Assembly (NCBI GenBank): GCA_963850385.1
Contig: CAWKKS010000001.1
Coordinates: 435,001 to 499,000 of the forward strand
Length of the DNA: 64,000 nucleotides
Source: Candidatus Dormiibacterota bacterium
Lineage (GTDB): Bacteria > Chloroflexota > Dormibacteria > Aeolococcales > Aeolococcaceae
Direction of reading: 5' to 3'
The position numbers were made by a program, and so were the translations under genes. The notes under the pieces are model-generated. The model saw nothing but the letters and a program-made list of their open reading frames with translations. It had not been told where the DNA came from and did no database searches. Shown here piece after piece: positions 8,178-45,836 of this stretch (within the stretch, counting starts at the first letter, position 1; each line of letters begins with the position of its first letter).

Positions 8178-9370
8178 GCTCGCGGGTTCCTCTGCTCGCC
8201 GGGATCGCGGCGCTCAGCTTCTTCGCCGGGATCACCGGGATCCACCTCGCCTACACGCTGACATATGTCCTGCTCGCCCTGCTGGTGCTTGCGTTCATCT
8301 GGACACGGGCCATTGCGCGCCGCATCAGCGTGGACCGCAGCTCTCCCGAGGGTTCGTTCTCGGTCGGGGAGCCGTTCAGCGAGCACTTCACCATCCACAA
8401 CCGCAGCCTGCTCTGGGTGCCGTACTGCGAGGTGCACGACCGCACAGAGATCCCCGGGTATGCCGCCGGCCGGGCCTGCGCGCTTGCCGCCGGGGACAGC
8501 GTCTCCTGGACGGCCCGCGGCCATTTCACCTCCCGAGGCCGCCACCGGTTCGGCCCCCTGGAGGCGCGCGTCGGAGACCCCTTCGGGCTCTTCAGCCGCA
8601 CCGTGCGGGTGGCGGCGAGGAGCGAGGTGACGGTGTATCCCGCGCTCCACCCGCTGCAGGACATCGGGCCGCTGTGGAGCGGCGACGGCGCGGGGGACAT
8701 GCGTCGGGGCAAGGCCGTGGACGTGGCCCCCGAGGTCTCCTCGGTCCGTGAATACGCGCCGAGCGACGGGCTGAGCCGCATCCACTGGGCCTCGACGGCA
8801 CGGATCGGCCGGCTGATGAGCCGGACCTACGACACCCGCTACAGCGCCGACCTGCTGGTGGTCCTCGACCTGCGCGCCGGGGTGCACGCGGGCGTGGCGC
8901 CCGAGTCGTCCCTTGAGTACGCGGTGTCAATCGCGGCGTCGATCGTCAACGCCGTGGCCCGGCGCGGTCAGGCGGTCGGTCTCATCACCAACGACGCGGA
9001 CATGCGCGCCTTCGGCGCCGGCCGTGGCGAGGCGCAGCGCATGCGTCTGCTCGACTACCTGGCCACGGCGCGTGACAACGGCATCGCCCCGCTGGCACAC
9101 GTGGTCAGCCGGCACGGCGAGGGTTGGCGCGGCCGCGGTGGCATGGTGGTCATCAGCGCCGACCGCGACTCCACGTGGGTGGAGGCCCTCGTGGACTCCG
9201 GGACCCGGGGCCAACGCCACCTCGCCGTCCTGCTCGAGACGTCCTCGTTCGGAGCGGCCGGCCCGCCGATGCGCATCCCCGCCGCCTGGCGCCTGGCCCT
9301 GGATTGGTGGCTGGTCCGCCGCGGTGACGTGCTCGGCAGCGGCGAAAGGGCCCACGCGGCAGGCGGCTGA
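8174..9370 (+). CDS. DUF58 (VWA-like) protein, MoxR partner
   Basis: GTG overlaps the moxR stop. N-terminal TM, 'REYAPSDGLSRIHWASTAR', 'VLDLRAG'. Confidence 0.75.
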   Translation: MSSRVPLLAGIAALSFFAGITGIHLAYTLTYVLLALLVLAFIWTRAIARRISVDRSSPEGSFSVGEPFSEHFTIHNRSLLWVPYCEVHDRTEIPGYAAGRACALAAGDSVSWTARGHFTSRGRHRFGPLEARVGDPFGLFSRTVRVAARSEVTVYPALHPLQDIGPLWSGDGAGDMRRGKAVDVAPEVSSVREYAPSDGLSRIHWASTARIGRLMSRTYDTRYSADLLVVLDLRAGVHAGVAPESSLEYAVSIAASIVNAVARRGQAVGLITNDADMRAFGAGRGEAQRMRLLDYLATARDNGIAPLAHVVSRHGEGWRGRGGMVVISADRDSTWVEALVDSGTRGQRHLAVLLETSSFGAAGPPMRIPAAWRLALDWWLVRRGDVLGSGERAHAAGG

Positions 9371-9372
9371 CA

Positions 9373-11700
9373 ATGAGCGTGGCGACCGCGTCGATCAACG
9401 CCCGGCCGATGCAGGTGCACCGGTCGATCACTCCCATCCTGGTCGGCACCCTGGTGCTGACCACCGGCTGGTCGGTGCTCGCAGGGGGCTGGACGGATGG
9501 GTCGACCGCCATTCTGCTGGTGGGTGTGGCCGGTACGCTCGAGGGGCTGCTGCTGGCGCGCTGGCGGACGCCGCGCCCGCTGCTGGTCGCCGCGGCACCG
9601 ATCCTGCTGCTCCTCAGCCTGCTGCCCACCAACGCGGCATCGCGGCCGATCGGCACCGGCACGGGCCTGGTCCACGCGCTCGGCCAGTACGCGGGCGCCG
9701 CGGCCACGGGCCTGCTCGGCAACGCCCGCTGGGAGTTCAACGTCGGGCTTGGGGCGCTTCTGTGGCTGTGTGGGGCCTGGGCAGCCTGGTTTGCCGTCCG
9801 CGAGAAGCGCGGCTCGATCGCCACCGGGCCCTGCTGGGCGGTCATTGCCGTCAACGTCATCAACGCGCCGTCCACCACTGGCCTCACCGTCCCGGCGGCA
9901 CTGGCTGCCGCCACCGCGCTGATGCTCGTCGCCGCGGTCAACCTGGAGCGGCTCAACGACAGCTGGCGGCAGCGCCGGGTGAGCGTCCTGCCCGGCACAG
10001 GCGGCCGCTTCGCCACCGCAGCCCTCTTCGGCGCCGCGCTGGTTGTCGTCCTGGCGCTGGTCATCCCACCGCTCAGCAGCACCGACATCTCCGGCCGGCT
10101 CTTCGGCGGCGGCGTCGATGCCGGGGCCGGCAAGGGGAGCCACCACGGCGGAGGCGCGAGCGGTGGTGGCGCGACAGTGCATTTCAACACTGCGACCATC
10201 CCCGGCGGGGCGCTGTCGCTCTCGGACAGCCCGGTCCTCACCTACACGTCCAGCCTGTCCAGCGGGGCGTACCTGCGCATGGAGACCGACAGCGTGTTCG
10301 CCGCCGGCAACTTCCTGCCCGCGCAGAGTGCCAACGACAACGGCGACGACACCGAGGTGATCGTCGACACGCCGGGGCTCATCCCGCGCGATCGCGACAT
10401 CGCCGACGGCGGGGTTGGGGCGCAGCGTGCGCGCGTGTCGCTGACCATCAGCATGATCGACGACACCTCCGACACCAACACGCTGCCGTTCGCCGGCGAG
10501 CCCGACGCGACCGGCGTGCCGTCGCGGGTCGATGGCCTCAGCGGCTCGGAGGTCAATGGACAGCTGCTCACCGTCGACAGCGTGCAGGCACTGCGCCAGG
10601 TGATCGGCACCACGTTCACGACGACGGCGACGGAGTCCACGGCGTCGGCAGACCAGCTTCGCCGAGCGGGCACGTCCTACCCCGCCCTGATCACCCGCGA
10701 CTTCCTCGGCCTCGCTAACGACGGCACCCACGGAGCAGCCGCGATCCGCGCGGTGGCGCTGCAGTGGACCCGCGGCGTCACCAACCCCTACGACGCCGCC
10801 ACCACGATCGAGGCGACTCTTCGCAACCCGCGGCTGTTCCGCTACACGCTGTCGCCGCCGCCGCTTCCACCGGTCACCCAGACCTGGCCTGTGACCTACT
10901 TCCTGACGGTCACCCACGCGGGCTACTGCCAGTACTACGCCGCCGCCATGGGCGCCATGCTGCGAGCCGTCGGCATCCCGTCGCGTCTGGTCAACGGCTA
11001 CGGCCCGGGCACCGCACCCAATGCGGCGGCGCGGCGGGTCGCCTCGGAGAGCCGCTGGACAGTCTCAAGCAACGACGCCCACACCTGGGTGGAGGCGTAC
11101 TTCCCGCGCTACGGCTGGATCCCGTTCGAGCCCACCCCTCCCTCGCAGGCCGGCGACTACCAGCCCTTCGGACGCGGCAGCCTGGGCGCGGTCGGAACGA
11201 CCGGCACCGGGCCGACCCCGCCGGCGACCTCCCCGTCGCAGACGGCGCGGTCGAGCGCCCCGGCGGTCAACGGCGCGGGCACCTCCGCACCCGGGCGTGG
11301 GCGCAGCGTGCTGGTCGGTTTGGGTGGTGGCCTGCTCGCTCTCCTCGCGGTGACCGGGATGTTCGCGGCATGGTTCCTCGGGCCTCGCAACGTCCGCGGG
11401 GTGTGGCGTCGCGTCGGGCTGGTGGGCCGCTGGCTCGGCGTGCCCCGTGACCGGACCCTGACCTTCGACGAGTACACCGAGCGGATCGTGGCCGCGGTCC
11501 CCGGCGACGGGACGGTCCCCTGGCGGGTGCGGTTCGCCGCCGGCCTGGCTGACATCGCCGCCATCAGCGATCGGACGTTCTACTCACCGGCGGGAGGGCA
11601 CCCAGACGACGCTGGTCTGAAGCGCGCGTGGCGGCGGGTCGCGCTACTGGTGCCCCGGCTGAGCCGCGGCGGAGGTGCGCCCCGGGCCGCCGCCCCCTGA
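9373..11700 (+). CDS. transglutaminase-domain membrane protein (DUF3488/DUF4129 type)
   Basis: Multi-TM N-terminus; Cys-His-Asp core 'YCQYYAAAMGAMLRAVGIPSRLVNGY…DAHTWVEAYFPRYGWIPFEPT'. Confidence 0.8.
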   Translation: MSVATASINARPMQVHRSITPILVGTLVLTTGWSVLAGGWTDGSTAILLVGVAGTLEGLLLARWRTPRPLLVAAAPILLLLSLLPTNAASRPIGTGTGLVHALGQYAGAAATGLLGNARWEFNVGLGALLWLCGAWAAWFAVREKRGSIATGPCWAVIAVNVINAPSTTGLTVPAALAAATALMLVAAVNLERLNDSWRQRRVSVLPGTGGRFATAALFGAALVVVLALVIPPLSSTDISGRLFGGGVDAGAGKGSHHGGGASGGGATVHFNTATIPGGALSLSDSPVLTYTSSLSSGAYLRMETDSVFAAGNFLPAQSANDNGDDTEVIVDTPGLIPRDRDIADGGVGAQRARVSLTISMIDDTSDTNTLPFAGEPDATGVPSRVDGLSGSEVNGQLLTVDSVQALRQVIGTTFTTTATESTASADQLRRAGTSYPALITRDFLGLANDGTHGAAAIRAVALQWTRGVTNPYDAATTIEATLRNPRLFRYTLSPPPLPPVTQTWPVTYFLTVTHAGYCQYYAAAMGAMLRAVGIPSRLVNGYGPGTAPNAAARRVASESRWTVSSNDAHTWVEAYFPRYGWIPFEPTPPSQAGDYQPFGRGSLGAVGTTGTGPTPPATSPSQTARSSAPAVNGAGTSAPGRGRSVLVGLGGGLLALLAVTGMFAAWFLGPRNVRGVWRRVGLVGRWLGVPRDRTLTFDEYTERIVAAVPGDGTVPWRVRFAAGLADIAAISDRTFYSPAGGHPDDAGLKRAWRRVALLVPRLSRGGGAPRAAAP

Positions 11701-12465: not shown

Positions 12466-13483
12466 GCGGCGACGGCCTCGGTGCCGGCGCGGGCGTGGGC
12501 AGCGTCGAGGGCAGGCCCTCCTGGCCGAACCCCCAGTCGAGCAGGTGACGCGACTGGCTGTAGCTGTAGGGCGCGTCGAGCAACACCGAGACCAGGCGGT
12601 GGTCGCCACGCACTGCCATGGCAACCTCGCAGTACCCGGCGTTCCCCGTCCAGCCGGGCTTGATGCCGACCGCGGGAGCGTACATGCCGAGCAGCTGGTT
12701 GATCGACTGCAGCACGAACTCGGGATGTCCGCGGGTCGCGGCGAGATCGGCTGTCCTCAGGCCCACGATCTGCGCGAACAGCGGAAACGCGCGCACGGTC
12801 GCGGTGGCGATCGCCGCCAGGTCGTACGCCGACGAGTATTCCCACTGGTCGTCGAGGCCGACGGGGCCGGTGAAGTGGGAGTCGTTCAGGCCGAGTGCGG
12901 TCACCTGTGCGTTCATCGCCCCGACGAATCGCTCCGTCCCGACCGTGTCGCGGGCGAGCGCACCGGCGGCGTCATTGCCGCTGACCAGCAGCATCCCGGT
13001 CAACAGCTCGGCGACGGTGAGGGTCTGGCCGGCGGCGAGGCCCATGCGGCTCTCGTCCCAGCCCAGGCGCACCACGTCGGAGGTGACCGTGACGGCGGCC
13101 GAGGGGGCGAGGTTCTCCAGCGCCACGAGGGCGGTGAGGACCTTCGCGGTGCTCGCCGGAGGCAGCTGCGCGTGCGCGTCCTGCTCCCAGAGGATCACGT
13201 TCGAATCGATGTCCACGAGGATGCCGCCGCGCGCGCGGACGGCGGGCGGGGTGAGCGGCGCCGCCGCCGCGACGAAGCGCACCGGCGTGCGCAGCACCTT
13301 CATCCGATACCAGGGCGCGCGCGCCAGGTCGGCGCCGGTGATCGCGGCGTCGTGGGCACGGGCGGTGGTGGTGGGGCCGGCGCGACCGCTGATCAGCGCG
13401 AGCGTGCTGATCGTCGCCAGCATGACGAGGATCGCGAGCGTTCTTGGGCGGCGAAGCACGGACGGCATCGAGACCAGTCGCAT
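12458..13483 (-). CDS. D-alanyl-D-alanine carboxypeptidase (peptidase S11)
   Basis: Signal peptide; SxxK 'ASTAKVL', SxN 'SGND', KTG-like 'KPGWTG'. Confidence 0.75.
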
Positions 13484-13569
13484 GGTACGCCAGGACAGTC
13501 GATCCCACGGTGGCGATCGCCGCCGCCGGAGGCCGATTTGCATGGCGGCCGCCGGGGTATCACATCAGC

Positions 13570-16191
13570 ATGCGACTTGACCGATTCACCGAGCGCTCCC
13601 AGGAATCCCTGCAGGCGGCCCAGCAGGCTGCCTCGGCGATGCAGCACGCGCGGGTCGAGCCCGAGCACCTGCTGCTCGCGCTTCTGCGCCAGGACGACGG
13701 ACTGGTCCCAGCCCTGCTGCAGCGCCTCGAGGTACCTCCTCACCCGCTGGCGGCGAGGCTGGAGAGCGAGCTTGACGCGCGCCCGAAACAGTTCGGAGGT
13801 GGCGAGCCGGCGGTCGGTGACGCGCTCCGCGAGGTCCTCATGGCGGCCTTCGACGAGATGTCGCGGCTCAAGGACGAGTACGTGTCGACGGAGCACCTGC
13901 TGCTCGGCCTGACGGGCCGTAAGGGTGGCGAGGCACACCGGCTGTTGAGCGGTGCCGGCGTCACTCCCGACCGGGTCTACGCGACCCTGGCGGCTGTGAG
14001 GGGCTCGCAGCGGGTAACCGATCCCAACCCCGAGGACAAGTACGACGCCCTCGGCAAGTACGGCCGCGACCTCACCGACGCGGCGCGCGCCGGCCGGCTC
14101 GACCCCGTCATCGGCCGTGACGATGAGATCCGCCGTGTCATCCAGGTGCTGAGCCGCCGTACCAAGAACAACCCGGTGCTCATCGGCGAGCCCGGCGTCG
14201 GCAAGACGGCCATCGCCGAGGGCCTGGCCCAGCGCATCGCCGCCGGCGATGTACCGGAGGGCCTGCGTGACCGTCGCGTGGTGGCGCTCGACCTCGGCGC
14301 GATGGTCGCCGGGGCGAAGTACCGCGGCGAGTTCGAGGACAGGCTCAAGGCGGTTCTCGCCGAGGTCACAGGATCTGACGGCCGGGTCATCCTGTTCATC
14401 GACGAGCTGCACACGCTGGTCGGCACGGGTGCCGCCGAAGGTGCCATGGACGCGGGCAACATGCTCAAGCCCGCACTGGCCCGCGGTGAGCTGCGTTGCA
14501 TCGGCGCCACCACGCTCGATGAGTACCGCAAGCACATCGAGAAGGACGCGGCCCTCGAGCGGCGGTTCCAACCCATCGTCGTCGATCAGCCGAGCGTGGA
14601 GGACACTGTCAGCATCCTGCGTGGGCTCAAGGAGCGCTACGAGGTCCACCACGGCGTGCGCATCAAGGACGCGGCCATCGTCGCCGCCGCGGTGCTCTCG
14701 GACCGCTATATCACCGACCGTTTCCTACCCGACAAGGCGATCGACCTCGTCGACGAAGCGGCCTCCAAACTGCGCATCGAGATCGACTCGATGCCGACCG
14801 AGCTCGACACCGTGGAACGCGACGTGCGCCAACTCGAGATCGAGCGCGAGGCCCTGCGCCGGGAGACCGATGCCGGCTCACGCGAACGGCTCGCCGCACT
14901 CGAACGCGAGCTCGCCAACCTCCAGGAGCGCGCCACGCAGATGCGCGAACGCTGGCAGCAGGAGAAGGGTGCCATCGGTGCCATCCGCGACATCAAGAGG
15001 CGCGCGGAGGAGCTGCGCCACGACGCCGAGCGCGCCGAGCTGGCCGCGGACTTCGGCCGCGCGGCGGAGCTTCGCTACGGCACCCTCGCCGAGCTGGAGC
15101 GCGGCCTGCAGGCCGAGCAGGAGCGGCTCACCGAGCTGCAGGGCACCGTCCCGCTCCTCAAGGAGGAGGTCGACGAGGACGACATCGCCGCCGTCGTCGC
15201 CCGGTGGACCGGCATCCCCGTCAGCCGGATGCTCGAGGGCGAGACCCAGAAGCTCCTGCACATCGAGGAACGGCTCCACGAGCGCGTGGTCGGGCAGGAT
15301 GACGCCGTCGCCGCCGTCGCCGCCGCGGTGCGGCGCGGACGCGCTGGGCTGAGCGATCCCAGCCGTCCCATCGGGTCATTCATCTTCCTTGGGCCCACGG
15401 GTGTCGGCAAGACGGAGCTCGCGCGTGCGCTGGCAACGTTCCTGTTCGACAGCGAGCAGGCGATGGTGCGCATCGACATGTCGGAGTACATGGAGCGGCA
15501 TTCGGTGTCGCGGCTGGTGGGGGCGCCGCCCGGGTACGTCGGCTACGACGAGGGCGGCCAGCTCACCGAGGCGGTGCGTCGCCGGCCGTACAGCGTGCTG
15601 CTCCTCGACGAGATCGAGAAGGCGCACCAGGATGTCTTCAACATCCTTCTCCAGCTTCTCGACGACGGCCGGCTCACCGACGGACAGGGACGCACCGTCG
15701 ACTTCAGGAACACGGTGGTCATCATGACCAGCAACATCGGCTCGCACCTGATTGCAGAGATGCCCCCCGAGGCAGACGGCGCCCAGCACGACAGGGTGCG
15801 TGAACAAGCCCTCGCCGAGCTGCGCCAGCACTTCCGGCCGGAGTTCCTCAACCGCGTCGACGACGTGATCGTCTTCTCCCGGCTGAGCCGCGCGCAGCTG
15901 CGTCACATTGTCGAGATCCAGCTGCAGAACCTGCGCGCGCGCCTGGCCAGCCGCGCGATCACCATCGAGATCAGCTCTCCGGCGCTCGACCTCCTCGTCG
16001 ACGAGGGTCATGACCCGACCTACGGCGCACGTCCCCTGAAGCGTGTCATCCAGCGCCGGCTGCAGGACCCGCTGGCCATGGCCATCCTGGAAGGGCGGCT
16101 GCGGGATGGCGACACCGCACACGTCGATGCGCGGGGTGGCGAGCTGGTGGTCGAGACGCCAGCACCGAGCGAGGTCGCAACGGTCAGCTGA
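13570..16191 (+). CDS. clpB: ATP-dependent chaperone ClpB
   Basis: '[18 protein letters not shown]…', two AAA modules ([16 protein letters not shown]), coiled-coil middle domain; 873 aa. Confidence 0.9.
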
Positions 16192-16228
16192 GCTGTCCGC
16201 CCTGCGTGAGCGGCTACCCTTGGGCCCC

Positions 16229-16786
16229 ATGCCCGCCGTGTCGCTGCGCACCGCCGCCGGCCTGGTTGCCCTCGGTGCCTACATCGCGGTCATCTTCGCG
16301 GCCAACTGGGCAGTGCAGCGGTTCGGTCTCGTACCCGTCGGCTTCGGCCTCCGTGCCCCCGCCGCGGTCTACTTCGTGGGGATCGCCTTCACCCTGCGCG
16401 ACCTCGTGCAGAACATCCTGGGACGCTGGCTGTCCATCGCCGCCGTCGTCGCCGGGGCGCTGGTATCGGCCGGCGTCTCGCCGGCCCTGGCGCTGGCCAG
16501 CGGACTGGCGTTCTTCTCGTCGGAACTTGCCGACTTCCTCGTCTACACGCCGCTGCTGCGCCGGGGCTGGGTGCTCGCGCTCATCCCCGCCAACCTGATC
16601 GGCTGCGTCGTCGACTCGCTGGTCTTCCTGTCCATCGCCTTCGGCTCGCTCTCCCTCCTGGGTGGGCAGGTGCTCGGCAAGGCCTGGATGACAGCGCTCG
16701 CGGTCGTCGTGCTCGCCCCCCTGCGTCGCTGGTACGTGCTCACCCCAGGCAGCCCGGCGCGCAGGCTGCAGGGCGCGCCCGCATGA
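16229..16786 (+). CDS. queuosine precursor transporter (YhhQ/DUF165 family)
   Basis: Multi-TM protein with a '[14 protein letters not shown]' motif; lies immediately upstream of queF. Confidence 0.65.
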
Positions 16787-17214
16787 GCGAGGACCGTCAT
16801 CCGCGCGAGCTGCTGGAGGCGTTCGACAACCGCAGCACGCAGCGCGACTACACCATCCAGTTCACCCTGCCCGAGTTCACCTGCCTCTGTCCGCGCAGCG
16901 GTTTCCCTGACTTCGCGATCATCCACGTTCGGTACGTGCCGGGGCCGCGCTGCGTCGAGCTCAAGTCGCTGAAGATGTACGTCAACGCCTTTCGCAACGT
17001 GGGCGTCTTCCACGAGGACGTGGTCAATGGGATCCTGTCGGACCTCGTCGGCCTCCTCGCGCCGCGCTACTGCGAGGTGGTCGGTGACTTCAACGTACGC
17101 GGCAACATCAAGACCGTGGTCCGCGCCCTCCACCGGGACGCGACGTACAACGCCGAACCAGCCGACTGGTGGGCGCCGCGCGACGAACACGCCGCGCTGA
17201 TGCCCCCCCGGTGA
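16783..17214 (+). CDS. queF: NADPH-dependent 7-cyano-7-deazaguanine reductase
   Basis: '[14 protein letters not shown]…VELKSLKMY' QueF motifs; 143 aa; ATG overlaps the upstream stop. Confidence 0.85.
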
Positions 17215-17220
17215 GGGCGG

Positions 17221-18528
17221 TCAGCGCAGAGTGAGCACCTCACCGCCCTGGGCGAGCGCCAGGGCCAGGGGGTCGCGGCGACGGTCGGGGCGGATGTGAA
17301 GGCGCAGCTCATCGCCGTCCGCGTCGATGGACGCGCCCAGGTGAGCCGCAAGGAACAGGGCGATGCGCGGGTCCACCGCACCGGTTCCGTCGACATGAGG
17401 CAGGGACATGCTCAGTCCGTATGCCCGAGCCACGTCGCCAGCCCTACGGTTCCAGGTGTCTGCGGGAACGCGCTCGAGTGGGACGCCGAGCAGTGACCCG
17501 AGGATCGCGGCGCGGGCCGCGATCCGTGAACGCGCCGGTTCCGGGACCCCCTCCCAGAGGGCGCGCTCATGCGCCAGTCCGTCGAGGAGGTCGCGTGCGC
17601 GGTCGACGACGCCGTCCGGCGGGATGGCCACCCACGTCCCCCGGGCGCACTGCCTCGCGCTCCAGCCATCGACCCGGACCACGGTCCCGGGCCGACTGGA
17701 GGCCGCGTTGACGCACTGGGCCACCCGGCCGGCCGGCACCGTTCGGCCGGGAAGCAGCGATGTCTCCTCGTCCCAGCCACGCGTTGCCTTCACCACCGCT
17801 CCGTCGCGGAGCAGGGCGAGTGGAAGTGCCAGCCTGTCGAGGCCGCACTCCAGGATCGCGCCGCGGGCCTCGCCGTCGCCGTCGACGGGCGGATGGAGCA
17901 CAGCGCCGAGCGAGTCGGCCGCGATGCGAGCGAAGCCGAGGCCCCACCGTGCTCGATCATCACGACGACGTGCGCTGCGACTGCGAGAGCCACCACCCGC
18001 CCGGCGCCATTCGACAGAGAACGCATGGGGCGAGGTCCGCAGGGTGAGGGCGGTCGCGCCGTCATGTCGTTCGGCGTTGCCGGCGACCTGCACCAGCACG
18101 AGCGCGGCCACCGCGGGCGCGAGCAGGGCGAACCGCGCGCCCTCGACGATCGACACCTCCAGGGCGGTGCGCGCGGCGATACCGGCGCACGCGTGCTCGA
18201 GCGCGTCGGTGCTGAGGCCGCACCCCTCTGCGGCCCGTCCGACGACGACACGGAGCGATGTCGAGAGCATGCGCACGCGCAGTGCCTGACGGTGAGCAAC
18301 GGCGCGGGCGGTGTCGTCGAGCTCCTCCAAGAGCGCATCGATGAGGTGACCCCACGCCGGGTCGACTGCGTCACCCGTGTTGACCACCAGGCAGGCACGG
18401 CGCGCGCGGTAGGTGACCGCCCCGGGCTGAGCACCGTCCCACTCGGGCGTCGTCGCGAGCACGGTGTGGCCGTCAAGCAGCGCGGCGGACAGCGGGAGAT
18501 CGGCCACCTCCCCGGTGGCGAGGTTCAC
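17221..18528 (-). CDS. histidine-kinase-like ATPase-domain protein (atypical)
   Basis: N-box-like 'LVQVAGNAERHDG', G2-like 'RWGLGFARIAADSLGAVL'. GTG start overlaps the upstream REC-gene stop (GTGA). ~170-aa C-terminal domain of unknown function. Confidence 0.45.
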   Translation of the reverse strand: MNLATGEVADLPLSAALLDGHTVLATTPEWDGAQPGAVTYRARRACLVVNTGDAVDPAWGHLIDALLEELDDTARAVAHRQALRVRMLSTSLRVVVGRAAEGCGLSTDALEHACAGIAARTALEVSIVEGARFALLAPAVAALVLVQVAGNAERHDGATALTLRTSPHAFSVEWRRAGGGSRSRSARRRDDRARWGLGFARIAADSLGAVLHPPVDGDGEARGAILECGLDRLALPLALLRDGAVVKATRGWDEETSLLPGRTVPAGRVAQCVNAASSRPGTVVRVDGWSARQCARGTWVAIPPDGVVDRARDLLDGLAHERALWEGVPEPARSRIAARAAILGSLLGVPLERVPADTWNRRAGDVARAYGLSMSLPHVDGTGAVDPRIALFLAAHLGASIDADGDELRLHIRPDRRRDPLALALAQGGEVLTLR

Positions 18529-19164
18529 GGACGCAGAGCCAGTCGGTACCGGCGCTTGCCGTGACTGATCACTGCCACGCGCGACTGGCGCGCGTCCAAC
18601 CAATCGCCGAACCGCCGCACCGCCTTGGTTGCCGTGTCGGAGTGGAGGGTCACCATCTCGGGGTAGTGCATCACCAGGCGAACCGCCTCGCGATGGTGAT
18701 GCTCGGCCATGCTCGGCGCGTGCACGACGACGCAACCGTCGGTGATGCGCAGGTCCTCCACCACGGCATCCAGCATTCGCTGCACACGCTCGATCAGCGA
18801 GAGGTCCCCGTCGCGCTTGTCGTGCAGCCAGGCGCGGGGATGCGCGCGGTGGATCTCGCTGCGCACGCGGAACGAGTCGATGTTGGCGGAGTACACGATG
18901 GTCAGGCAGTCGGCCAGGTCGCGGGCGAGCACGCCGAGCACGTCCCCGCTGGTCAGCGTCTGGTCGGGCGCCTTGGAGAGGTCCCAGTCCACCACCGCGA
19001 GCACCGGCCTTGTCGACGCCGCGTTGTTGCGCAGCGCCGCCAGCGCATGTGCCGCGCTCCGTGCGGCCAGCGGGTGGAACCGCTTGCGCGAGAAGTGGAC
19101 GCGAAGCGCGTCCAGGGTCTCGGCGTCGTCCTCGAGGATCAGCACCTCGGCATTCGCACGCATC
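18525..19164 (-). CDS. response-regulator receiver-domain protein with an uncharacterised C-terminal domain
   Basis: 'EVLILEDD…LAVVDWDLS…TIVYSANID' has the acidic-pocket/Asp pattern of a REC domain; no recognisable output domain. Confidence 0.5.
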
Positions 19165-19747
19165 ACGCGGTGGTCACCAGCGAGGCGCCCGCAGAGGCCG
19201 TGCGCGCCAGGCTGAACGCGACGCCATGCGTTCGCAGGGTGGTCCCGACGGCGCGGAAGTGCCGCGCCTCCGCGTAGACGGGATGGGGGTGGCCGCCGAC
19301 CAGCACCTCCAGGGCGTCGTCGGCCGCGTGGCATCCGTCGGGCATCTGCAGCCCGCACCCGGGGGCGAGCCGCATGCCTCCCACGTCGGCGGCGATGGCC
19401 TCCTCCAGTGCCGCGGCGACCTCCGAGTAGCGGAGCAGCGATCGCGCGTGCCGCGGCAGTTGCGCGGGAGCGGTGCCCAGCCACAGCAGGAGCACCGGCC
19501 TGCGAGCGAGGGCGCGCAGCGCCTCGTCGGTGATCTGCCTCACGGTGCCGACGACCATCCACGGGCAGGCGTGCCGATCGCGAATCGCCTCATCGGCCTC
19601 GGACGGCCGGATGTCGAGCACGGTGACGTAGGCACGATCCAGCCGATCGCGGAGGGCGACGGCGAGCTCTGGGTCCTCGGCGATGACCAACACCGAGCGA
19701 CCGAGCCCGCCATGGGTGCGCGCGCCCCCTGCCCGTTGTCCCCCCAT
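19163..19747 (-). CDS. degenerate receiver-like protein
   Basis: 'SVLVIAEDPELAVALRDRL…WMVVGTV' is REC-like, but the phospho-acceptor Asp position is replaced. Confidence 0.4.
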   Translation of the reverse strand: MGGQRAGGARTHGGLGRSVLVIAEDPELAVALRDRLDRAYVTVLDIRPSEADEAIRDRHACPWMVVGTVRQITDEALRALARRPVLLLWLGTAPAQLPRHARSLLRYSEVAAALEEAIAADVGGMRLAPGCGLQMPDGCHAADDALEVLVGGHPHPVYAEARHFRAVGTTLRTHGVAFSLARTASAGASLVTTA

Positions 19748-19796
19748 GACGGTGGATCTTAGGCGGGTGCTCCCGGACGCCCGACGGACAAAGCGG

Positions 19797-20402
19797 TCAC
19801 GTGGCCGAGGTGCCGTCGCCCTCAGCGTCGTCGGCGTCATCGAGGAAGTCGACGATCTCGGTGTCATATGCCTCGCGGGCGGTGTGCAACACGGCCCGCA
19901 CCACCTCCACTGTTTCAGGGGTCCACTCCAGGGCGGCGGCGAGCTCGAGCGTCGTCGGCTCTCGCTCGAGCCGGCGGCGAACCAGCACCTCGGCAGCCTC
20001 GAGGAGCTTCACCTGCTCGACGAGCAGCGCATCCGCGAGCTTCTGCGCCGCCTCGCGCTTGATCACGTCGTCGAGGAAGGTGTCCACCACCCGCGCGACG
20101 TAGCCGCGCAGCGCCGCCGGGGCACCGCCGCGCGCGGCGAACTCCCCCACCGCGACGGTGGCGGCGATGGACCCCTCCTGGTAGAGGTCCATGAGGTCGA
20201 CGCCCTGGCCGCGCCGCGCCAGCACGGCGTCGAGCACCGCGGCGAGGTGCTGCTCGACCAGCCGGCCGGTGGTCAGCTCTGACGGGGCGCTACGCGCCCT
20301 CTCGAGGAGGACGACCAGCTCCGCCTCCGGGAGGGGTCTGACGGACCTGACCTGGGCGGCGATGGCATCCAGCTCGGTGTCGTCAGGGAACCGCGTGGTC
20401 AT
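19797..20402 (-). CDS. sigma-70-family protein (regions 1.2–3) lacking region 4
   Basis: 'RGQGVDLMDLYQEGSIAATVAVGEF' aligns with region 2.2/2.3 (RG..FLDLIQEGN.GL..AV.KF). 'REPTTLELAAALEWTPETVEVV' aligns with region 3.0. 201 aa ending in an acidic tail; no -35-binding region. Confidence 0.55.
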   Translation of the reverse strand: MTTRFPDDTELDAIAAQVRSVRPLPEAELVVLLERARSAPSELTTGRLVEQHLAAVLDAVLARRGQGVDLMDLYQEGSIAATVAVGEFAARGGAPAALRGYVARVVDTFLDDVIKREAAQKLADALLVEQVKLLEAAEVLVRRRLEREPTTLELAAALEWTPETVEVVRAVLHTAREAYDTEIVDFLDDADDAEGDGTSAT

Positions 20403-20854
20403 GGCCCGCGAGCGGGAGGCGCGCCTTCACGACCGAAGCGGGCAGCCAGCTGCTCCACGGCGCGGGCCACCTCGCGCCGGGCCGCCGGTTGGCTGGCGCG
20501 CTCCACCGCGCCACCGAAGGCCCCGCCGACGGAGTAGCGAGCCTCGACCCGCAACCGGGATCCTCCTCTCGCCGGGCTGACCTCGATGGTGACTGTGAGG
20601 TCGAGGCCCTCCTCGAGCACCAGGACCATGATGCGCGGCTCGTCCATCTCCTTCACCCGCAGCACGCCGCGGAGGTGACGTCCCACCAGCCCGGCCTCGA
20701 CCTCGAAACGCGCCCCCACGCCGCGCTTGGGACCGCCCATGTGCTTGACACCGCGCACCGCAGGCAACCAGTCGGCGTTGGGGATGTCACTGACCACGGC
20801 GAATGCCGCCTTGGGCGGGACCGGCAGGGTCGCGGTGGCGCTGGCCTCGATCAT
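20399..20854 (-). CDS. SRPBCC (polyketide cyclase/dehydrase-like) family protein
   Basis: 151 aa with SRPBCC-like composition; 4-nt overlap with the sigma-like gene. Confidence 0.55.
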   Translation of the reverse strand: MIEASATATLPVPPKAAFAVVSDIPNADWLPAVRGVKHMGGPKRGVGARFEVEAGLVGRHLRGVLRVKEMDEPRIMVLVLEEGLDLTVTIEVSPARGGSRLRVEARYSVGGAFGGAVERASQPAARREVARAVEQLAARFGREGAPPARGP

Positions 20855-20866
20855 GGCTCCCCCACC

Positions 20867-21736
20867 TCAGTACATCACGGTGGCGAACTCGCCCTGCTGC
20901 TCGAAACCGACGCGCCCGTAGACGCGGAGCGCAGCCGCGTTGTACCCGTTGACGTACAGGGTCACCAGCGGCACCTCCTCCAACAACAGCGAGCACAGCG
21001 CCGTCATCCCGGCCGTGGCCACTCCCCGGCCCCGGCGAGCCGGCCCGGTGAACACCCCCTGCACCTGCGCGACGTCCGGCGTCCAGGCGCTGAGCTCCGC
21101 TTTGAACACGACCTGGCCATTCTCCCTCCACACCCAGCTCCAGCCGCGGTCGACCAGCTGGGTCATGCGCGCCCGCCAGGCGCTGGCATCGGGAGGTGCG
21201 CTGTCGGCACTGAGCTCCTCGCGGTGCATGATCGCCGCTGCCGCGGCGAGCGCGTCGACGTCGCGGCGCGTGCTCCGACGTATCGGACCGGGCGGGAGGA
21301 TGCGCAGCCGCCGACGGTCGACCACCATCACCGGCTGCGGATCGTGGATCTCGCGCGCCCCCCGGGGAGGCTGGAGGCTCGCGTGCAGAGCGCGCACCGC
21401 GTCCCTCGGTCCCACCATGAGGTGCGGCGGCGTGGCGGTGCGGATGGCCTCGGCGAGGCGCACCGCATCCCCGGTGTCGGGAAGGAACGGCACCGTCAGC
21501 GCGCCGGCGAGCACTGCGCCGCGCATCTCGCCGCTGTCGGAGACACACCACCACGGGGCGCCGGTGCCGAGCAGACGCAGCTCGCTGCGCAGGTACACGT
21601 TGGCGACGGGGTCGGTGTCGAGCAGCCGCTCCAACGCTGCCATGTCGACGGGGCCTACTCGGGCGACGGTCAACTGGGCCACCGCCCGATTGTGCCCGGT
21701 CGCGCGACGCCGGCAGCCGCCGAGACCGTGGCGCAT
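20867..21736 (-). CDS. GNAT N-acetyltransferase with an N-terminal DUF4081-like domain
   Basis: C-terminal 'GRGVATAGMTALC…YVNGYNAAALRVYGRVGF' GNAT motif A/B. Start uncertain (ATG 21736, GTG 21682 or ATG 21643). Confidence 0.6.
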   Translation of the reverse strand: MRHGLGGCRRRATGHNRAVAQLTVARVGPVDMAALERLLDTDPVANVYLRSELRLLGTGAPWWCVSDSGEMRGAVLAGALTVPFLPDTGDAVRLAEAIRTATPPHLMVGPRDAVRALHASLQPPRGAREIHDPQPVMVVDRRRLRILPPGPIRRSTRRDVDALAAAAAIMHREELSADSAPPDASAWRARMTQLVDRGWSWVWRENGQVVFKAELSAWTPDVAQVQGVFTGPARRGRGVATAGMTALCSLLLEEVPLVTLYVNGYNAAALRVYGRVGFEQQGEFATVMY

Positions 21737-21788
21737 CGGGACGACACTAGACTGGGCCACCGCCGCGCTCCAACCAGGGAGGACTGCC

Positions 21789-22397
21789 GTGACCCGAGCC
21801 CGACATGCCACCCTCGTCGTGACGGTGGTCGGCGGGATGCTCACGGCCTGTGGCGCGCCGGCGACGCCGCCCGCCACCGTCCTCCCCAGCCCACAGAGCC
21901 CCACACCCACACCGCTCGGGGGCATGCCCCTGCGCACCGAAAGGTTCTCGACGGTGGTGCCGTCGAGGTGGACCGACCGGCTCGGCGACCCGGCTGAGGT
22001 GGCCAAGTTCAGTGCCAACGGCAGGGTGGAGATGCTCGTCGAGCAGCCGCCGCCGGGCAATGTCCAGCCGAACGTCAACGACGTCACCGCCAACATCAAC
22101 GTGCTCCTTCTGCCGTCGCCGGTGCCCGATGACCAGGTTCCCACCTACCTACAGAGCGTCGCCAACAACGGCGCGACCAACCTCAGCTCGGCACGGTCGT
22201 TCACCATCGACGGTGCCACCGGCCAGTTCATCACCTACGACCGCGACATCCAGAGCACACCGGGTGAGAGCCAGGACATGATCATCAACCACCGCGGCAG
22301 CACCTTCGACATCGTGCTCAACACCTCCCAGTTCGCGTTCACCGACCAGCTCGCCGGTCTGCAGGCCGTGCTGGCGGCGTGGCGCTGGAACAGCTGA
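21789..22397 (+). CDS. lipoprotein of unknown function
   Basis: GTG start; signal + lipobox 'GGMLTACG'; divergent from the GNAT operon. Confidence 0.5.
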
Positions 22398-22398
22398 G

Positions 22399-23439
22399 GT
22401 GTTGATCATCATGGGCGCGCAGGCGACGCCCGCAGAGATCGCCAACGTCGTGGAGCACGTGCGCGAGCGCGGCTACAGGCCCATCGAGCTACCGGGCGCC
22501 GACAGGCTGGCGATCGGCGTGCTGGGGAGCAACCCCGCGGCGATCCGCGATGCGGTCGTCGCGCTTCCCGGTGTCGTCGATGCCATCCCGGTGAGCAAGC
22601 CGTACAAGATGGTCGGGCTCGAATGGCATCCCCAGCGTTCGGTGGTGAACGTCGGCGGTGTCAGCATCGGCGACGGCTCGCTGACGGTCGCCGCCGGGCC
22701 GTGCGCAGTCGAGAGCGAGGCACAGCTCGTCGAGACGGCGACCAGCGTCGCGTCAGCAGGCGCCAGGTTGCTGCGCGGGGGCGCGTACAAGCCGCGCAGC
22801 TCGCCGTACTCGTTCCGCGGCCTCGGGGCTGAGGGGCTCGAGCACCTGCGCCGCGCGCGCGACGAGACCGGTCTGCCGGTGGTGACGGAGGTTCTGACAC
22901 CGGGGGACGTTGCCGTCGTGGCCGAGGCCGCCGACATGCTCCAGGTGGGTACGCGCAACGCACAGAACTTCAGCCTGCTCGAGGCGGTGGGGGAGGCGGG
23001 CAAGCCGGTGCTGCTCAAGCGGGGCCTGAGCAACACCGTCGAGGAGTGGCTGCTCAGCGCCGAATACATCGTGGCGCACGGCAACCCCGACGTGGTGCTC
23101 TGCGAGCGTGGGATCCGCACGTTCGAGAACGCCACGCGCAACACACTCGACCTCTCCGCGGTTCCACTGGTGCGCTCTCTCTCGCACCTGCCCGTGGTGG
23201 TGGACCCCTCGCACGCCACGGGACACCGGCACCTGGTGCCGGCGATGGCGCTGGCCGCGGTGGCAGCCGGCGCCGACGGCCTGCTCATCGAGGTGCACCC
23301 GTCGCCCGACCAGGCTTTGAGCGACGGCCCGCAATCGCTGACGTTTGAGCAGTTCGGTTTGCTCATGGATGATGTGCGCCGCCTCGTCACGGCATTGCGA
23401 CACGGCCTTGTTGGGGAGATGTCACAGGGCACGCGGTAG
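22399..23439 (+). CDS. aroF: 3-deoxy-7-phosphoheptulonate (DAHP) synthase, class I-beta with N-terminal regulatory domain
   Basis: '[12 protein letters not shown]…[16 protein letters not shown]…[11 protein letters not shown]…[10 protein letters not shown]' motifs. Confidence 0.85.
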
Positions 23440-23467
23440 GATCAGGGCGCGCCACCCGGCGTGCACC

Positions 23468-24148
23468 ATGCCATTGTTCCGCCGCCGTCCACCCACCGAG
23501 TTCGCCTCGCCTGTCGGCACGCTCCCATGTTCGGAGCGCGGCTGCGCCAACGAGACGGCGATCAAGTGCGCGTACCTCGATCGGCGGGGCCGCGCGTGCA
23601 CCATCGCCTTCTGTCCCGATCACTGGGCGGAGGTGGGCGGCATCCAGTACTGCCGTCGCCACGCCGGCACGATCAGCGCGATGGGACCAGACACCGAGCT
23701 CGGCGCGCTTCCCGAGCTGGAGAACCGCGGACCGTCGCTGGTGAGCTGGGTCGCCGACGAGATCGGCTCCGAGGTCGAGCAGTTGCTGCGCAGGGTGGCT
23801 CGCGACGGTGAGACCGTCAAGACCGAGGCGGCTGTGAAGGTCATCTTCGATCACCAGCGCCGCCGCCGGTATGAGCGCAGCTGGAAGCTGATCGAGAGCA
23901 CCGGCATCAGCATCAAGGTGGCCCTGACGGTGAACGAGGACGAGGACGACGCACTCGTGGATGTGCGTGTGAACTCCAACGTCATCGCCCGCGGGGTGCC
24001 GCCGTGGATCGCCCGGCGCCGCGCCGGGCTTGCCGTTGGAGGCCAGGTCGACAAGGACCAGCGCGAGCTGTTCCATCGCTTCTTCGTCAACCACATCGCC
24101 GAGGAGGTTGCCGCGCAGCGCTCCTCGGAATCCCGCCTGACCGCGTAA
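23468..24148 (+). CDS. hypothetical protein with an N-terminal Cys/His-rich putative zinc-ribbon
   Basis: 'CSERGCANETAIKCAYLDRRGRACTIAFCPDHWAEVGGIQYCRRH'; ATG at 23468. Confidence 0.45.
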   Translation: MPLFRRRPPTEFASPVGTLPCSERGCANETAIKCAYLDRRGRACTIAFCPDHWAEVGGIQYCRRHAGTISAMGPDTELGALPELENRGPSLVSWVADEIGSEVEQLLRRVARDGETVKTEAAVKVIFDHQRRRRYERSWKLIESTGISIKVALTVNEDEDDALVDVRVNSNVIARGVPPWIARRRAGLAVGGQVDKDQRELFHRFFVNHIAEEVAAQRSSESRLTA

Positions 24149-39860: not shown

Positions 39861-40042
39861 CGTCCTCTCCCCGTGGGTCGAGCGCGGGGCGCGCTGCGGC
39901 AGCGAGTATCCGGCGATCCGATGCCCTTCTACAAGGGGCTGGCGCGCGGGCCGATGATCACCCGTCGATCAGGGCTCCGCAGTCGTCGCTTGTCACCGGT
40001 GTCCGCTGGATGTCCGTGCAAGCCGATTAGCGTCGAGCGACC

Positions 40043-40756
40043 GTGTACCTCATCGAAGCGCGTCCGGTGCCGACCCCTGCTGACGCTGAGCGGTTGCTGG
40101 CGGATCTCTGGCAGCTCACCGCAGGGCGCGGTCTCGGCTTGTTCCTGCTGGGAGTCGGGGATGGGCTGATGCTGGGTGTCACCGCGCTGCATTCCGGGAT
40201 GGAGGAGGCGGCTGCCGCGACCATCGCGGACCAGTGCGGGGGGGCGGTCGAGCCCGGTTGGATGGTGCCGGAGATGGTTCGCGCCGCCGGCGACATCGCC
40301 GCGGTCAACCTGGTGCCCACCGAGCGTCACATCGACGTCGAGAGCCGGACGTACGGCTGGCAGCGGAGCGACCCTCTACGCGGGACGTTCCTGGCGCTCC
40401 GCCACCTCCCTCTCGGTGTCGTGGGCGGGGTGTCGCTGAGCCTGCGCGCGCTGCCCCGGCTCGGCTTCGCCCTGTCATTGGGAGCGTTTGTCGCCGGCCC
40501 GGCGGCGGCCGGCCATGTCGTGCGCGTGGCTGCGACATTCGGGGGGATCGGGGTGCGCCTGCGCCGCCCGCTCCTTCAACGCCGGGCGGTGCGACGAATG
40601 GTCGAGGGCAGGCTGCGCCGCCCCGCCGCCGTCCGGCGAGTCGAGGTGGTGGCCCGGTTCTGGCACCCACCGTACGCCTCGGACACCGGTCTCCAGGCAG
40701 CCCCGGACGCGACTGACAAGCCAGCCGGCTACCTGGGTACGGGGCGTGTCCCTTGA
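40043..40756 (+). CDS. hypothetical protein; first ORF ahead of the Tad-like cluster
   Basis: GTG start; 237 aa; no recognisable domain. Confidence 0.35.
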   Translation: MYLIEARPVPTPADAERLLADLWQLTAGRGLGLFLLGVGDGLMLGVTALHSGMEEAAAATIADQCGGAVEPGWMVPEMVRAAGDIAAVNLVPTERHIDVESRTYGWQRSDPLRGTFLALRHLPLGVVGGVSLSLRALPRLGFALSLGAFVAGPAAAGHVVRVAATFGGIGVRLRRPLLQRRAVRRMVEGRLRRPAAVRRVEVVARFWHPPYASDTGLQAAPDATDKPAGYLGTGRVP

Positions 40757-40874
40757 CGGTCCCGGTGCAGCCGCCTACCGTCTCCGTTCGCTTGGGTGAG
40801 CAGCGCAACCGTGCTGCTCGCCGGTGCGGCTGGCCCGAGCACACCGACGGGGGATGAGGGGGGAGGAAAGCGCC

Positions 40875-41504
40875 ATGAACCGGCGTCGCCTCGCAGCCGC
40901 GATCTTCTTCAGCGCCGTCATCGTGCTGGTGCTCGGTGTGATGGTGTTCCTCGAACAGTCAGGACGAGGGCAGACGGTCACCGTGCTGGTGCTGAAGCAC
41001 AACGTGCTCGCCGGCGACACCTACCGCGCCGACGACGTGTCGGCTGTGGCGGTGCGTGCGCCGGAGGGCGATTTCAACTACGAGCACCGCACCCCCGGGC
41101 AGTACGCGGCGCGCTACGCACAGAGCCTCCAGGTCAACGACATCCTGCGTGCCGATGACCTCGTCGACTTGAGTGCCCAGGTGGAGGTCGCGGTGACCAT
41201 GCAGGCCCCGCCGCCGTTGTCGGGGGGCGATCGCATCGATGTGTTCGCCACCATGGGCGGCGGCCGGCAGGCGAGGATCGGGCATGGCGTCACCGTCCTG
41301 GCCGCGTCCGGTGGGGCCCTGACCCTGCTGGTCCCCGTCGCGCAGGAGGAGGCATGGATCTCGGTGGCCTCCTCCAGCATCGCCCTGCACGCGGTGCGGG
41401 CAACGGGACCGGAGCCGGCTTCGCTGCAGCCGCTCAACCCCGACGACGCCGTGAGCAGCCTGTGCGGGTCGAGTTGCCTGTCGACCCAGTCCGGCGCACC
41501 GTGA
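40875..41504 (+). CDS. cpaB: Flp pilus assembly protein CpaB/RcpC-like
   Basis: Strong RBS 'gggggaggaaagcgccATG'. N-terminal TM, SAF-like segment, and C-terminal 'GDRIDVFAT…VTVLAA…LLVPVAQEEAW' typical of CpaB. Confidence 0.6.
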   Translation: MNRRRLAAAIFFSAVIVLVLGVMVFLEQSGRGQTVTVLVLKHNVLAGDTYRADDVSAVAVRAPEGDFNYEHRTPGQYAARYAQSLQVNDILRADDLVDLSAQVEVAVTMQAPPPLSGGDRIDVFATMGGGRQARIGHGVTVLAASGGALTLLVPVAQEEAWISVASSSIALHAVRATGPEPASLQPLNPDDAVSSLCGSSCLSTQSGAP

Positions 41505-45447: not shown

Positions 45448-45450
45448 GCT

Positions 45451-45835: not shown

Positions 45836-45836
45836 G

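Follow-up and report, generated by a model that had tools for sequence, protein, structure and literature searches.

The T4 protein gp55 is phage-encoded, comprises only a region-2-like part of a sigma factor and works with gp33 and the sliding clamp, and the SigO-RsoA pair of Bacillus subtilis splits regions 2 and 4 between two adjacent genes. In PhyR, from the alphaproteobacterial general stress response, an ECF-type sigma2-sigma4 mimic and a receiver form a single chain that titrates NepR. Anti-sigma factors of the GHKL fold grip sigma domains 2 and 3, and Caulobacter DivL is a pseudo-histidine kinase, that is, a kinase scaffold without a phosphorylatable His. Here, we describe a locus in which a sigma-70-family paralogue is encoded beside receiver-like and histidine-kinase-like proteins. 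It consists of six genes, all on the minus strand (17221..21682), within a 64,000-nucleotide stretch of contig CAWKKS010000001.1 (hereafter, the window; G+C ~70%). In the order of transcription, they encode a GNAT acetyltransferase, an SRPBCC/START-fold protein, the sigma-70-family paralogue (sigma-like), two receiver-like proteins (REC1 and REC2), and a histidine-kinase-like protein (HK-like).

An earlier reading made from the DNA letters alone (the sequence-only reading) saw a single operon here, perhaps pairing a sigma mimic or decoy with an ATPase switch. We instead favor two separate modules, with a probability of roughly 0.45: module A (GNAT, SRPBCC, and sigma-like) and module B, the trio of REC1, REC2, and HK-like genes. 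On this account, the two modules became neighbors in one Dormibacterota subclade, each independent of the other, and the sigma-like proteins are descendants of group 1-3 sigma factors. The single operon is contradicted by the separability of the modules (the trio is downstream of sigma-like in 0 of 19 loci in another clade), by a repeat that belongs to the trio, and by an Asp-to-Trp replacement in the G1 box of HK-like.

The synteny of module A is nearly fixed. Among 77 fetched loci with sigma-like homologues (labeled by L numbers below), sigma-like is immediately preceded by SRPBCC in 60 of the 61 with enough sequence. The 4-nucleotide overlap between the two genes is frequent and recurs in a distant relative (L081), and 36 of 43 loci have a GNAT gene farther upstream in the same orientation. 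The trio, in contrast, is downstream of sigma-like only in the clade with at least 57% sigma-like identity, where it is full in seven loci and partial or a remnant in five. In the other sigma-like clade, a hydrolase gene takes its place. Co-occurrence thus holds for the SRPBCC/sigma-like pair and not for the gene set as a whole.

Remnants of the trio lie beside intact sigma-like genes. HK-like residues 220-329 persist in L010 (2722..3048) and L011 (6168..6500), HK-like residues 372-430 in L014 (6314..6490), and REC1 residues 2-40 in L015 (5843..5959). Because these remnants differ in their end points next to intact sigma-like genes, the trio appears to have been deleted independently and recently. 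Three further loci carry the trio with no sigma-like gene annotated within the ~15 kb fetched: next to ClpB and a T2SSE cluster (L078); next to ClpB, a peptidase, and a lactamase-fold gene (L079); and next to TraG/VirB4-like and CHAP/SLT genes (L080). In L003, a gene for a 217–amino acid putative lipoprotein (8907..9560, plus strand; signal peptide with ‘LAACGSS’) stands between sigma-like and REC1. The C terminus of this protein resembles the end of a window open reading frame (ORF) at 20940..22397 (plus strand), between GNAT and the DAHP synthase gene. These comparisons speak against any obligate functional link between the modules.

Two apparent domain fusions were rejected. P0105 (347 amino acids), a candidate sigma-like/REC1 fusion, is a frameshifted gene call, and P0310, a candidate REC2/HK-like fusion, is a frameshift read-through; both come from the same 298-kb contig of an error-prone assembly. 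They are a caution against inferring domain fusions from such assemblies. The HK-like homologues P0209 and P0217 share a locus-tag prefix (ABSE52_11685, ABSE52_11875), so one Dormibacteria genome may carry two copies of the trio.

The sigma-like gene (19797..20402, minus strand) encodes 201 amino acids with an isoelectric point (pI) of 4.5. The protein spans regions 1.2, 2.1-2.4, 3.0, 3.1, and the first half of 3.2; the sequence-only reading had assigned it regions 1.2, 2, and 3.0, which is correct as far as it goes. As a single sequence, it scores below the Pfam gathering thresholds (region 2, 21.9 against a cut-off of 24; region 3, 19.9 against 25.3) and aligns to SigA and HrdB at ~2e-5, with the HrdB alignment reaching region 3.2. 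A 29-member family profile searched against solved structures matches RpoD/SigA at 2.8e-10, so that an unrelated helical protein is not the case. In this profile, positions 38-173 correspond to residues 369-502 of Escherichia coli sigma70 (regions 2.1-3.1). We read the N terminus (DDTxLDAIAAQVRSxxPLPxxE..LL) as probably collinear with region 1.2 abutting 2.1 in RpoS-type sigmas, a reading supported by RpoS and RpoH matches that start at profile positions 11-25.

At the other end, ‘YDTEIVDFLDD’ aligns with the HrdB region 3.2 motif ‘SEFGDLIED’, and ‘EIVDFLDD’ corresponds to ‘HLGDFIED’ of region 3.2. The chain stops 12 acidic residues past this motif, and the protein therefore has no region 4. 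That part of the sequence-only reading is confirmed by the profile match to RpoD/SigA, by the alignment to SigA and HrdB, and by homologue lengths: the 129 sigma-like homologues are nearly all 187 to 202 amino acids long, and the full-length ones likewise lack region 4.

Residue conservation separates polymerase docking from promoter reading. Region 2.2, the motif that binds the beta-prime clamp helices, is the best-conserved stretch (D72, L73, Q75, E76, and S78), and D72, Q75, and E76, the equivalents of sigma70 D403, Q406, and E407, are invariant or nearly so in the alignment. In contrast, the positions of sigma70 W433, W434, R436, Q437, T440, and R441 hold R, V, D, T, D, and D (R104, V105, T108, D111, and D112 being the counterparts of W433, W434, Q437, T440, and R441), and the promoter contacts of region 3.0 are not conserved. 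F88 and Y101, the equivalents of F419 and Y430 in the -11A pocket, are conserved. All 29 aligned members have a pI of 4.1 to 4.7, versus 10.4 for SRPBCC.

The family extends well beyond the close relatives. An exhaustive profile search over 50%-identity cluster representatives (E <= 1e-10, n=144) shows that the best ~110 of the 144 are 170 to 240 amino acids long, none with space for region 4, and that full-length sigmas enter the match list only near 1e-12. Distant members share the region 2.2, region 3.1, and ‘HDEELLxYLD(P)’ motifs and the acidic tail. They too lack the tryptophan pair, and regions 2.3/2.4 are the least conserved segment. Low-G+C organisms are among the members of this wider family. 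We found no relatives in viral contigs; curated NCBIfam models claim none of the wider family, all Pfam and NCBIfam scores being below cut-off; and our literature searches turned up no account of naturally occurring sigma paralogues without region 4, or of sigma-like proteins in Dormibacterota.

Separately, four proteins from low-G+C bacteria (P0463, P0475, P0485, and P0524) are RpoD-like, ~200 amino acids long, and stop after region 3; they reach 1e-32 against the RpoD model, far below its cut-off. The neighbor of such a short RpoD-like protein in L083/L084 (5001..5609) is a His_Phos_1 gene, not SRPBCC. Sigma paralogues without region 4 may have evolved on more than one occasion.

The partners of sigma-like in module A were named correctly by the sequence-only reading, as Pfam shows. 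GNAT (20867..21682, minus strand; 271 amino acids) matches DUF4081 (4e-9) and Acetyltransf_1 (6e-9). SRPBCC (20399..20854, minus strand; 151 amino acids) matches Polyketide_cyc2 over its full length (7e-15; 56 bits against a cut-off of 27.4) and is thus a helix-grip domain. Its closest solved structure is Mycobacterium tuberculosis Rv1546 (3e-5), and its score against the Rv0910 model is well under cut-off. According to a recent review (PMC13525633), the mycobacterial START protein MSMEG_0129 interacts with CarD, a polymerase-binding factor, and influences the SigF regulon. This might serve as a loose precedent for a link between sigma-like and SRPBCC.

From the gene models, folds, residue patterns, synteny, and motif conservation described here, we infer the binding and regulatory steps of each module. 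With the region 2.2 clamp-docking surface and the 3.2 ‘finger’ motif kept and the promoter-reading residues lost, sigma-like would bind core RNA polymerase without recognizing promoters on its own. It could act as a competitor of, or a placeholder for, real sigma factors. The basic SRPBCC, to which it is translationally coupled, may control its availability through 1:1 binding, possibly in a ligand-dependent manner.

A more specific version, which we consider rather doubtful, is that these ~200–amino acid proteins are a new class of cellular sigma mimic and, with the START-fold sensor made from the same message, form a ligand-gated ‘hibernation’ switch for RNA polymerase in Dormibacterota. Docking would occur by regions 2 and 3, the acidic finger and tail would point toward the active-site and RNA-exit channels, and polymerase would be parked or silenced without promoter binding. 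Dormibacterota are known for persistence in nutrient-poor soils.

Turning to the trio, HK-like (17221..18528, minus strand; 435 amino acids) has 187 homologues, nearly all ~436 amino acids long, and those named by taxon are nearly all from Dormibacterota. No Pfam domain was found in HK-like or its homologues, and the family profile found no kinase by sequence among solved structures. The AlphaFold model, however, is confident (predicted local distance difference test (pLDDT) 88.8; predicted template-modeling score (pTM) 0.85). It comprises a small beta domain (residues 1-50), a helical hairpin (57-95), a GHKL domain (~100-230), and two additional alpha/beta domains (237-435). Foldseek matches it to many kinases at E values of 2e-5 to 4e-4, including ZraS, EL346, CusS, and PDK kinases. 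The target-normalized TM-score (TMt) against the PrrB catalytic domain is 0.64 to 0.68, and the hairpin aligns with the dimerization-plus-catalytic unit of histidine kinases.

Because this confident fold matches kinase catalytic domains, the N and G2 boxes seen by the sequence-only reading are real rather than chance matches; the N-box (N151-A-E-R-H155) is invariant, and a G2-like ‘RWGLGF’ is present. The missing His box is confirmed as well, since a 35-sequence alignment shows no conserved His in the hairpin. Invariant W174 (‘VEWRRAGGG’) stands where the G1 Asp is expected, a position that we presume from the spacing to the N-box and from comparison with the EnvZ motif. In GHKL proteins, the G1 Asp binds adenine, and an invariant Trp in its place makes an ATP-driven switch doubtful. 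With no His and a blocked adenine pocket, HK-like is, in our reading, a pseudo-kinase.

REC2 (18525..19163, minus strand; 212 amino acids) is a divergent member of the OmpR/PhoB family by predicted fold, with 66 to 86% identity among the best 120 of its 193 homologues. Its AlphaFold model (pLDDT 86; pTM 0.82) has a five-fold beta-alpha receiver, after which come a beta-hairpin, helices, and a wing. Full-length Foldseek matches include PrrA, CosR, VanR, PmrA, RpaA, and MtrA (2e-7 to 1e-5), and full-chain alignments span 233 to 244 columns (PrrA, CosR-DNA, PmrA-DNA, VanR, MtrA, and KdpE). Matches of the receiver domain reach a TMt of 0.74 to 0.80 at a root-mean-square deviation of 2.3 to 2.8. 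The pocket residues D12, D13, D59, S92, and K116 show no variation and map to the ends of strands 1, 3, 4, and 5. This fold and these pocket residues make REC2 a divergent but probably phosphorylatable OmpR-type regulator. The acidic pocket and Asp noted earlier thus stand, whereas the C-terminal domain, then called unknown, is a winged-helix DNA-binding domain of the OmpR/PhoB type in the predicted structure. Sequence searches are less telling: there is no Pfam Trans_reg_C match, weak Response_reg matches occur in 16 of 32 family members, and the family profile returned nothing useful from solved-structure sequences.

REC1 (19163..19747, minus strand; 194 amino acids) is receiver-like in its N-terminal half. 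At the end of strand 3, where the phospho-acceptor Asp is expected, it has an invariant Gly67; of 13 sequences, only 6 have Asp or Glu at the next position. The alignment shows no conserved equivalents of the Thr/Ser or Lys of the pocket. Residues 22-127 align with PhoB 4-123 in hhalign (P = 9.3e-4; 0 of 100 shuffles reach the score; reversed control, P = 0.32), the target being a small, three-sequence OmpR-family alignment. The per-member Pfam scan and the search of solved-structure sequences with the family profile returned no match for REC1. The C-terminal half of REC1 appears collinear with the winged helix of REC2, but the similarity is unproven: hhalign of REC1 against REC2 is not significant, and shuffled controls overlap its score. 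A pseudo-receiver with a replaced Asp, as the sequence-only reading had it, is therefore moderately supported, a reasonable but not proven assignment.

A working phosphorelay within the trio seems improbable to us. In it, HK-like would be active on REC2 or REC1 through a noncanonical residue, or as a Ser/Thr kinase in the manner of PDK/BCKDK or anti-sigma kinases. The N-box Asn, the G2-like glycines, and the confident GHKL fold fit this idea, as do the Ser kinases PDK and BCKDK among the best fold matches, and the complete REC2 pocket, under strong constraint, implies phosphorylation by something. However, W174 is invariant at the adenine-binding position, helices 57-95 contain no conserved His, and the profile of the HK-like family retrieves no kinase by sequence. 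We therefore keep to a self-contained, autoregulated, atypical two-component module, in which HK-like would sense a signal and control REC2 through binding rather than phosphotransfer, and the pseudo-receiver REC1 would act as a modulator. The earlier view that the layout is neither canonical two-component nor partner-switching is in line with these findings.

The trio also has its own conserved control element. Aligning the spacer upstream of REC1 from nine loci leaves only two invariant blocks, a pair of GTCCG sequences 11 bp apart. In the window, this is a direct repeat, TGTCCG-N6-GTCCG (19774..19790, minus strand), which begins 7 nucleotides past the sigma-like stop codon. It is followed by 12 nucleotides, a -10-like hexamer (TAAGAT; 19756..19761, minus strand, by direct reading), 8 nucleotides, and the REC1 start codon (ATG 19747). 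This spacing places the repeat across the -35 position and would give a transcript with almost no leader. The -10-like element reads TAAGAT, TACCAT, TAGAAT, or TATGAT in relatives. The 8-nucleotide spacing from hexamer to ATG (window 19745..19761) is common to L001 and L009, and in other relatives, an additional ~40 conserved nucleotides (ggtgcagcgtgggg...) lengthen the stretch from the repeat to the -10-like element.

The exact GTCCG-N6-GTCCG is found upstream of REC1 in L079 and in every trio locus of the clade of the window. It is retained in L014 and L015 though the trio is deleted there, and it stays with REC1 in L003 despite the inserted gene. In L080, the repeat is inverted and ~370 nucleotides upstream. 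A consensus promoter scan reported no promoter, the strict sigma-70 consensus missing the TAAGAT hexamer, and RNA folding of the sigma-like/REC1 spacer is unremarkable (z = 0.31). A direct repeat over the -35 position is a geometry typical of OmpR/PhoB sites. The simplest reading would be that REC2 or REC1 autoregulates the trio through the repeat, and we suggest that REC2 binds TGTCCG-N6-GTCCG over the -35 position of the putative trio promoter.

An 11-base form of the motif has two matches in the window against 0.17 expected (two or more in 1 of 100 shuffles). The second exact copy (TGTCCGCTGGATGTCCG; 40000..40016, plus strand) is intergenic and has a similar layout, with 11 nucleotides, TAGCGT, and 9 nucleotides separating it from the GTG of the ORF at 40043..40756. 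This uncharacterized ORF (237 amino acids) starts a Tad-like cluster (40043..47366, plus strand) that comprises a T2SSE ATPase of the TadA/CpaF type (Pfam 2e-28), a weak SAF-like match (0.047), a weak ParA/MinD-like P-loop protein (ParA, 0.003), and uncharacterized proteins. In L078, a cluster lies adjacent and divergent to the trio, and six of its products match window 40875..46301 in the same order at 45 to 72% identity. REC2 would probably bind this second copy too, and the Tad-like cluster is a candidate trio regulon on suggestive, not proven, grounds. Exact copies of the repeat also lie ~60 nucleotides upstream of a gene for a bacterial RNase-A-like toxin, which is accompanied by a CdiI_2 immunity gene (L079 12475..12490, plus strand), and upstream of a 73–amino acid gene leading into TraG/VirB4-like and CHAP/SLT genes (L080 5383..5398, minus strand); these may be regulon members or chance matches. 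Copies in L018, L064, and L065 occur at about chance frequency and were not interpreted as sites.

The position of the repeat beside a -10-like hexamer also bears on whether sigma-like could be a genuine half of a split sigma factor, with a winged-helix partner (REC2 or REC1 bound at the repeat) replacing region 4. There are precedents in gp55 with gp33 and in SigO with RsoA, and the region 2.2 motif, the ‘DFLDD’ finger, and the F419/Y430 equivalents are all conserved. We nevertheless think this unlikely. Sigma-like has no tryptophan pair and carries acidic residues at the DNA-facing positions of regions 2.3/2.4, which form the least conserved segment of the wider family, and the region 3.0 contacts have been lost. 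Moreover, most sigma-like genes have no trio nearby, and SRPBCC is the only candidate partner conserved next to them.

Several observations weigh against our two-module account. Both gene sets are on one strand with no terminator found between them, so a functional link between the modules is possible, as is read-through co-transcription in this clade. Adjacency is kept across sigma-like identities of 57% to 85%, which could be due to selection and not inertia. An exact repeat is absent from L078, the second copy in the window has about a one-in-six chance of being accidental, and further exact matches in the fetched loci are about as frequent as chance predicts. The conserved F88 and Y101 leave some contact with single-stranded DNA possible, and a low pI proves little, given that primary sigma factors are acidic too.

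Some of these points would suit one integrated six-gene system, in which a decoy or mimic sigma is controlled by the GHKL protein and the receivers in the style of SpoIIAB/RsbW or PhyR/NepR. The genes share one strand with short gaps and no detected terminator, and they are adjacent throughout the clade with at least 57% identity. Both modules seem to be common across Dormibacterota, with 129 homologues of sigma-like and 187 of HK-like, proteins of the GHKL fold are established anti-sigma factors, and sigma-F of the SpoIIAB complex (1l0o) is among the matches of the sigma-like profile. We give this system little credence. Each module is found without the other, the trio has been deleted independently beside intact sigma-like genes, and it has its own conserved operator and -10-like element. 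Pfam and NCBIfam searches of the six products gave no STAS/SpoIIAA-type, HATPase_c_2, or NepR-like match. The G1 Asp-to-Trp change argues against a kinase or ATPase switch, and the best fold matches of HK-like are histidine and PDK-type kinases, with no SpoIIAB or RsbW among the 50 matches listed.

The remaining possibility, that sigma-like is a decaying remnant or annotation artifact and the HK boxes are chance in Arg/Ala-rich sequence, could appeal to the sub-cut-off Sigma70_r2/r3 scores and the lack of a Pfam match for HK-like but is refuted by the nearly uniform lengths of the 129 sigma-like (~200 amino acids) and 187 HK-like (~436 amino acids) homologues, by ratios of nonsynonymous to synonymous substitution rates (dN/dS) of 0.16 and 0.26 to 0.29, respectively, by the profile match to RpoD (2.8e-10), and by the match of the HK-like model to kinase catalytic domains.

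Purifying selection is in fact seen across all six genes (dN/dS 0.10 to 0.30, pairwise against two relatives), and none is thus a pseudogene. For the other four, the ratio is 0.14 to 0.17 (GNAT), 0.10 (SRPBCC), 0.29 (REC1), and 0.10 to 0.13 (REC2). Four products have exact database entries, all from a single 1.87-Mb contig (SRPBCC, 151; sigma-like, 201; REC2, 212; and HK-like, 435 amino acids). For GNAT, a start at ATG 21736 is feasible, yet homologues align from residue 1 of the GTG at 21682. The sequence-only reading gave gaps of at most 12 nucleotides or overlaps throughout, which holds at four junctions: a 12-nucleotide gap between GNAT and SRPBCC, an ATGA shared by the SRPBCC stop and sigma-like start, a 1-nucleotide overlap of REC1 and REC2 (TGATG, the conserved REC2 start being ATG, not GTG), and a GTGA overlap of REC2 and HK-like. 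It fails at the boundary between the modules, where the sigma-like stop (19799-19797) and the earliest plausible REC1 start (ATG 19747) leave 49 nucleotides. In relatives, this spacer is ~100 to 190 nucleotides, or ~1.3 kb with the extra gene in L003.

The homologues come almost exclusively from Candidatus Dormibacteraeota or Dormibacteria by source name, including Candidatus Amunia macphersoniae. The host, an uncultured soil bacterium, is accordingly a member of the candidate phylum Dormibacterota; the sequence-only reading had implied an actinobacterium, which is wrong. PADLOC gave no match of the six products to known defense protein models, an Rfam scan of 16000..23000 found nothing useful, and the only terminator-like site in the terminator scan is inside the HK-like gene, at the chance rate. 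The flanking window genes (13444..17214, 22399..23439, and 23345..24148, all plus strand) include ClpB, a Vut_1 transporter, QueF, and DAHP synthase, and a 267–amino acid ORF without a Pfam match comes after them. Of five trio contexts examined, four have ClpB close by.

All parts of this locus fall within known superfamilies. Undescribed in the libraries and literature that we searched are the sigma family without region 4, its coupling to SRPBCC, and the trio of pseudo-kinase, pseudo-receiver, and regulator. If sigma-like does bind the core enzyme yet reads no promoters, it would be a chromosomally conserved cellular competitor of sigma factors and would add a layer of global transcription control, undescribed for bacteria, that is tied to a START-fold partner. 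To our knowledge, the roles of bacterial START proteins are still mostly unknown. Because sigma-like proteins score below every scanned Pfam and NCBIfam cut-off, automatic annotation calls them ‘sigma factors’ or leaves them unnamed, which inflates sigma counts and hides distinct biology. The trio would be a small, naturally occurring set in which a pseudo-kinase and a pseudo-receiver accompany a live regulator. It offers a predicted DNA site and a plausible target, the Tad-like pilus/secretion cluster, that can be tested in vitro despite the uncultured host.

Among known systems, group 1-3 sigma-70 factors (RpoD/SigA, RpoS, and SigB/F/G) are collinear with sigma-like through regions 1.2, 2.1-2.4, 3.0, 3.1, and the start of 3.2, and share the motifs DLxQEG(S/N)I in region 2.2 and DF(L/I)(D/E)D in region 3.2. 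Unlike them, sigma-like has neither region 4 nor the tryptophan pair, is acidic at the R436/T440/R441 positions, and is ~200 amino acids long. Like gp55 and SigO-RsoA, it is a sigma-family protein unable to read a -35 element alone; unlike them, it keeps regions 2 and 3, with no adjacent region-4 gene, a fixed SRPBCC neighbor, and no viral relatives found. The likeness to PhyR, close in spirit to the decoy idea of the sequence-only reading, is a non-initiating sigma-like domain associated with receiver-type signaling, whereas sigma-like is of the group 1-3 type and is a separate, unfused protein, genetically separable from the receivers. Single-domain cytosolic helix-grip proteins like SRPBCC are found among mycobacterial START/SRPBCC proteins (Rv1546, Rv0910, and Rv0164/MSMEG_0129), but none of these has been reported as translationally coupled to a sigma-like gene.

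For the trio, the nearest relatives are OmpR/PhoB regulators, which share with REC2 the receiver and winged-helix fold and the D-D-D-S-K pocket. Their DNA sites are comparable too: pho boxes replace the -35 element for PhoB, and a repeat of 11-bp period overlaps the -35 position here. REC2 differs from these regulators in the shorter N-terminal sheet of its DNA-binding domain and in its neighbors, a pseudo-kinase and a pseudo-receiver rather than a membrane histidine kinase. The Helicobacter protein HP1043 (2hqr), among the fold matches of REC2, is an atypical regulator whose receiver has no Asp, as in REC1. Finally, HK-like resembles DivL as a putative pseudo-kinase but, unlike DivL, is missing the G1 Asp as well and has two extra domains at its C terminus.

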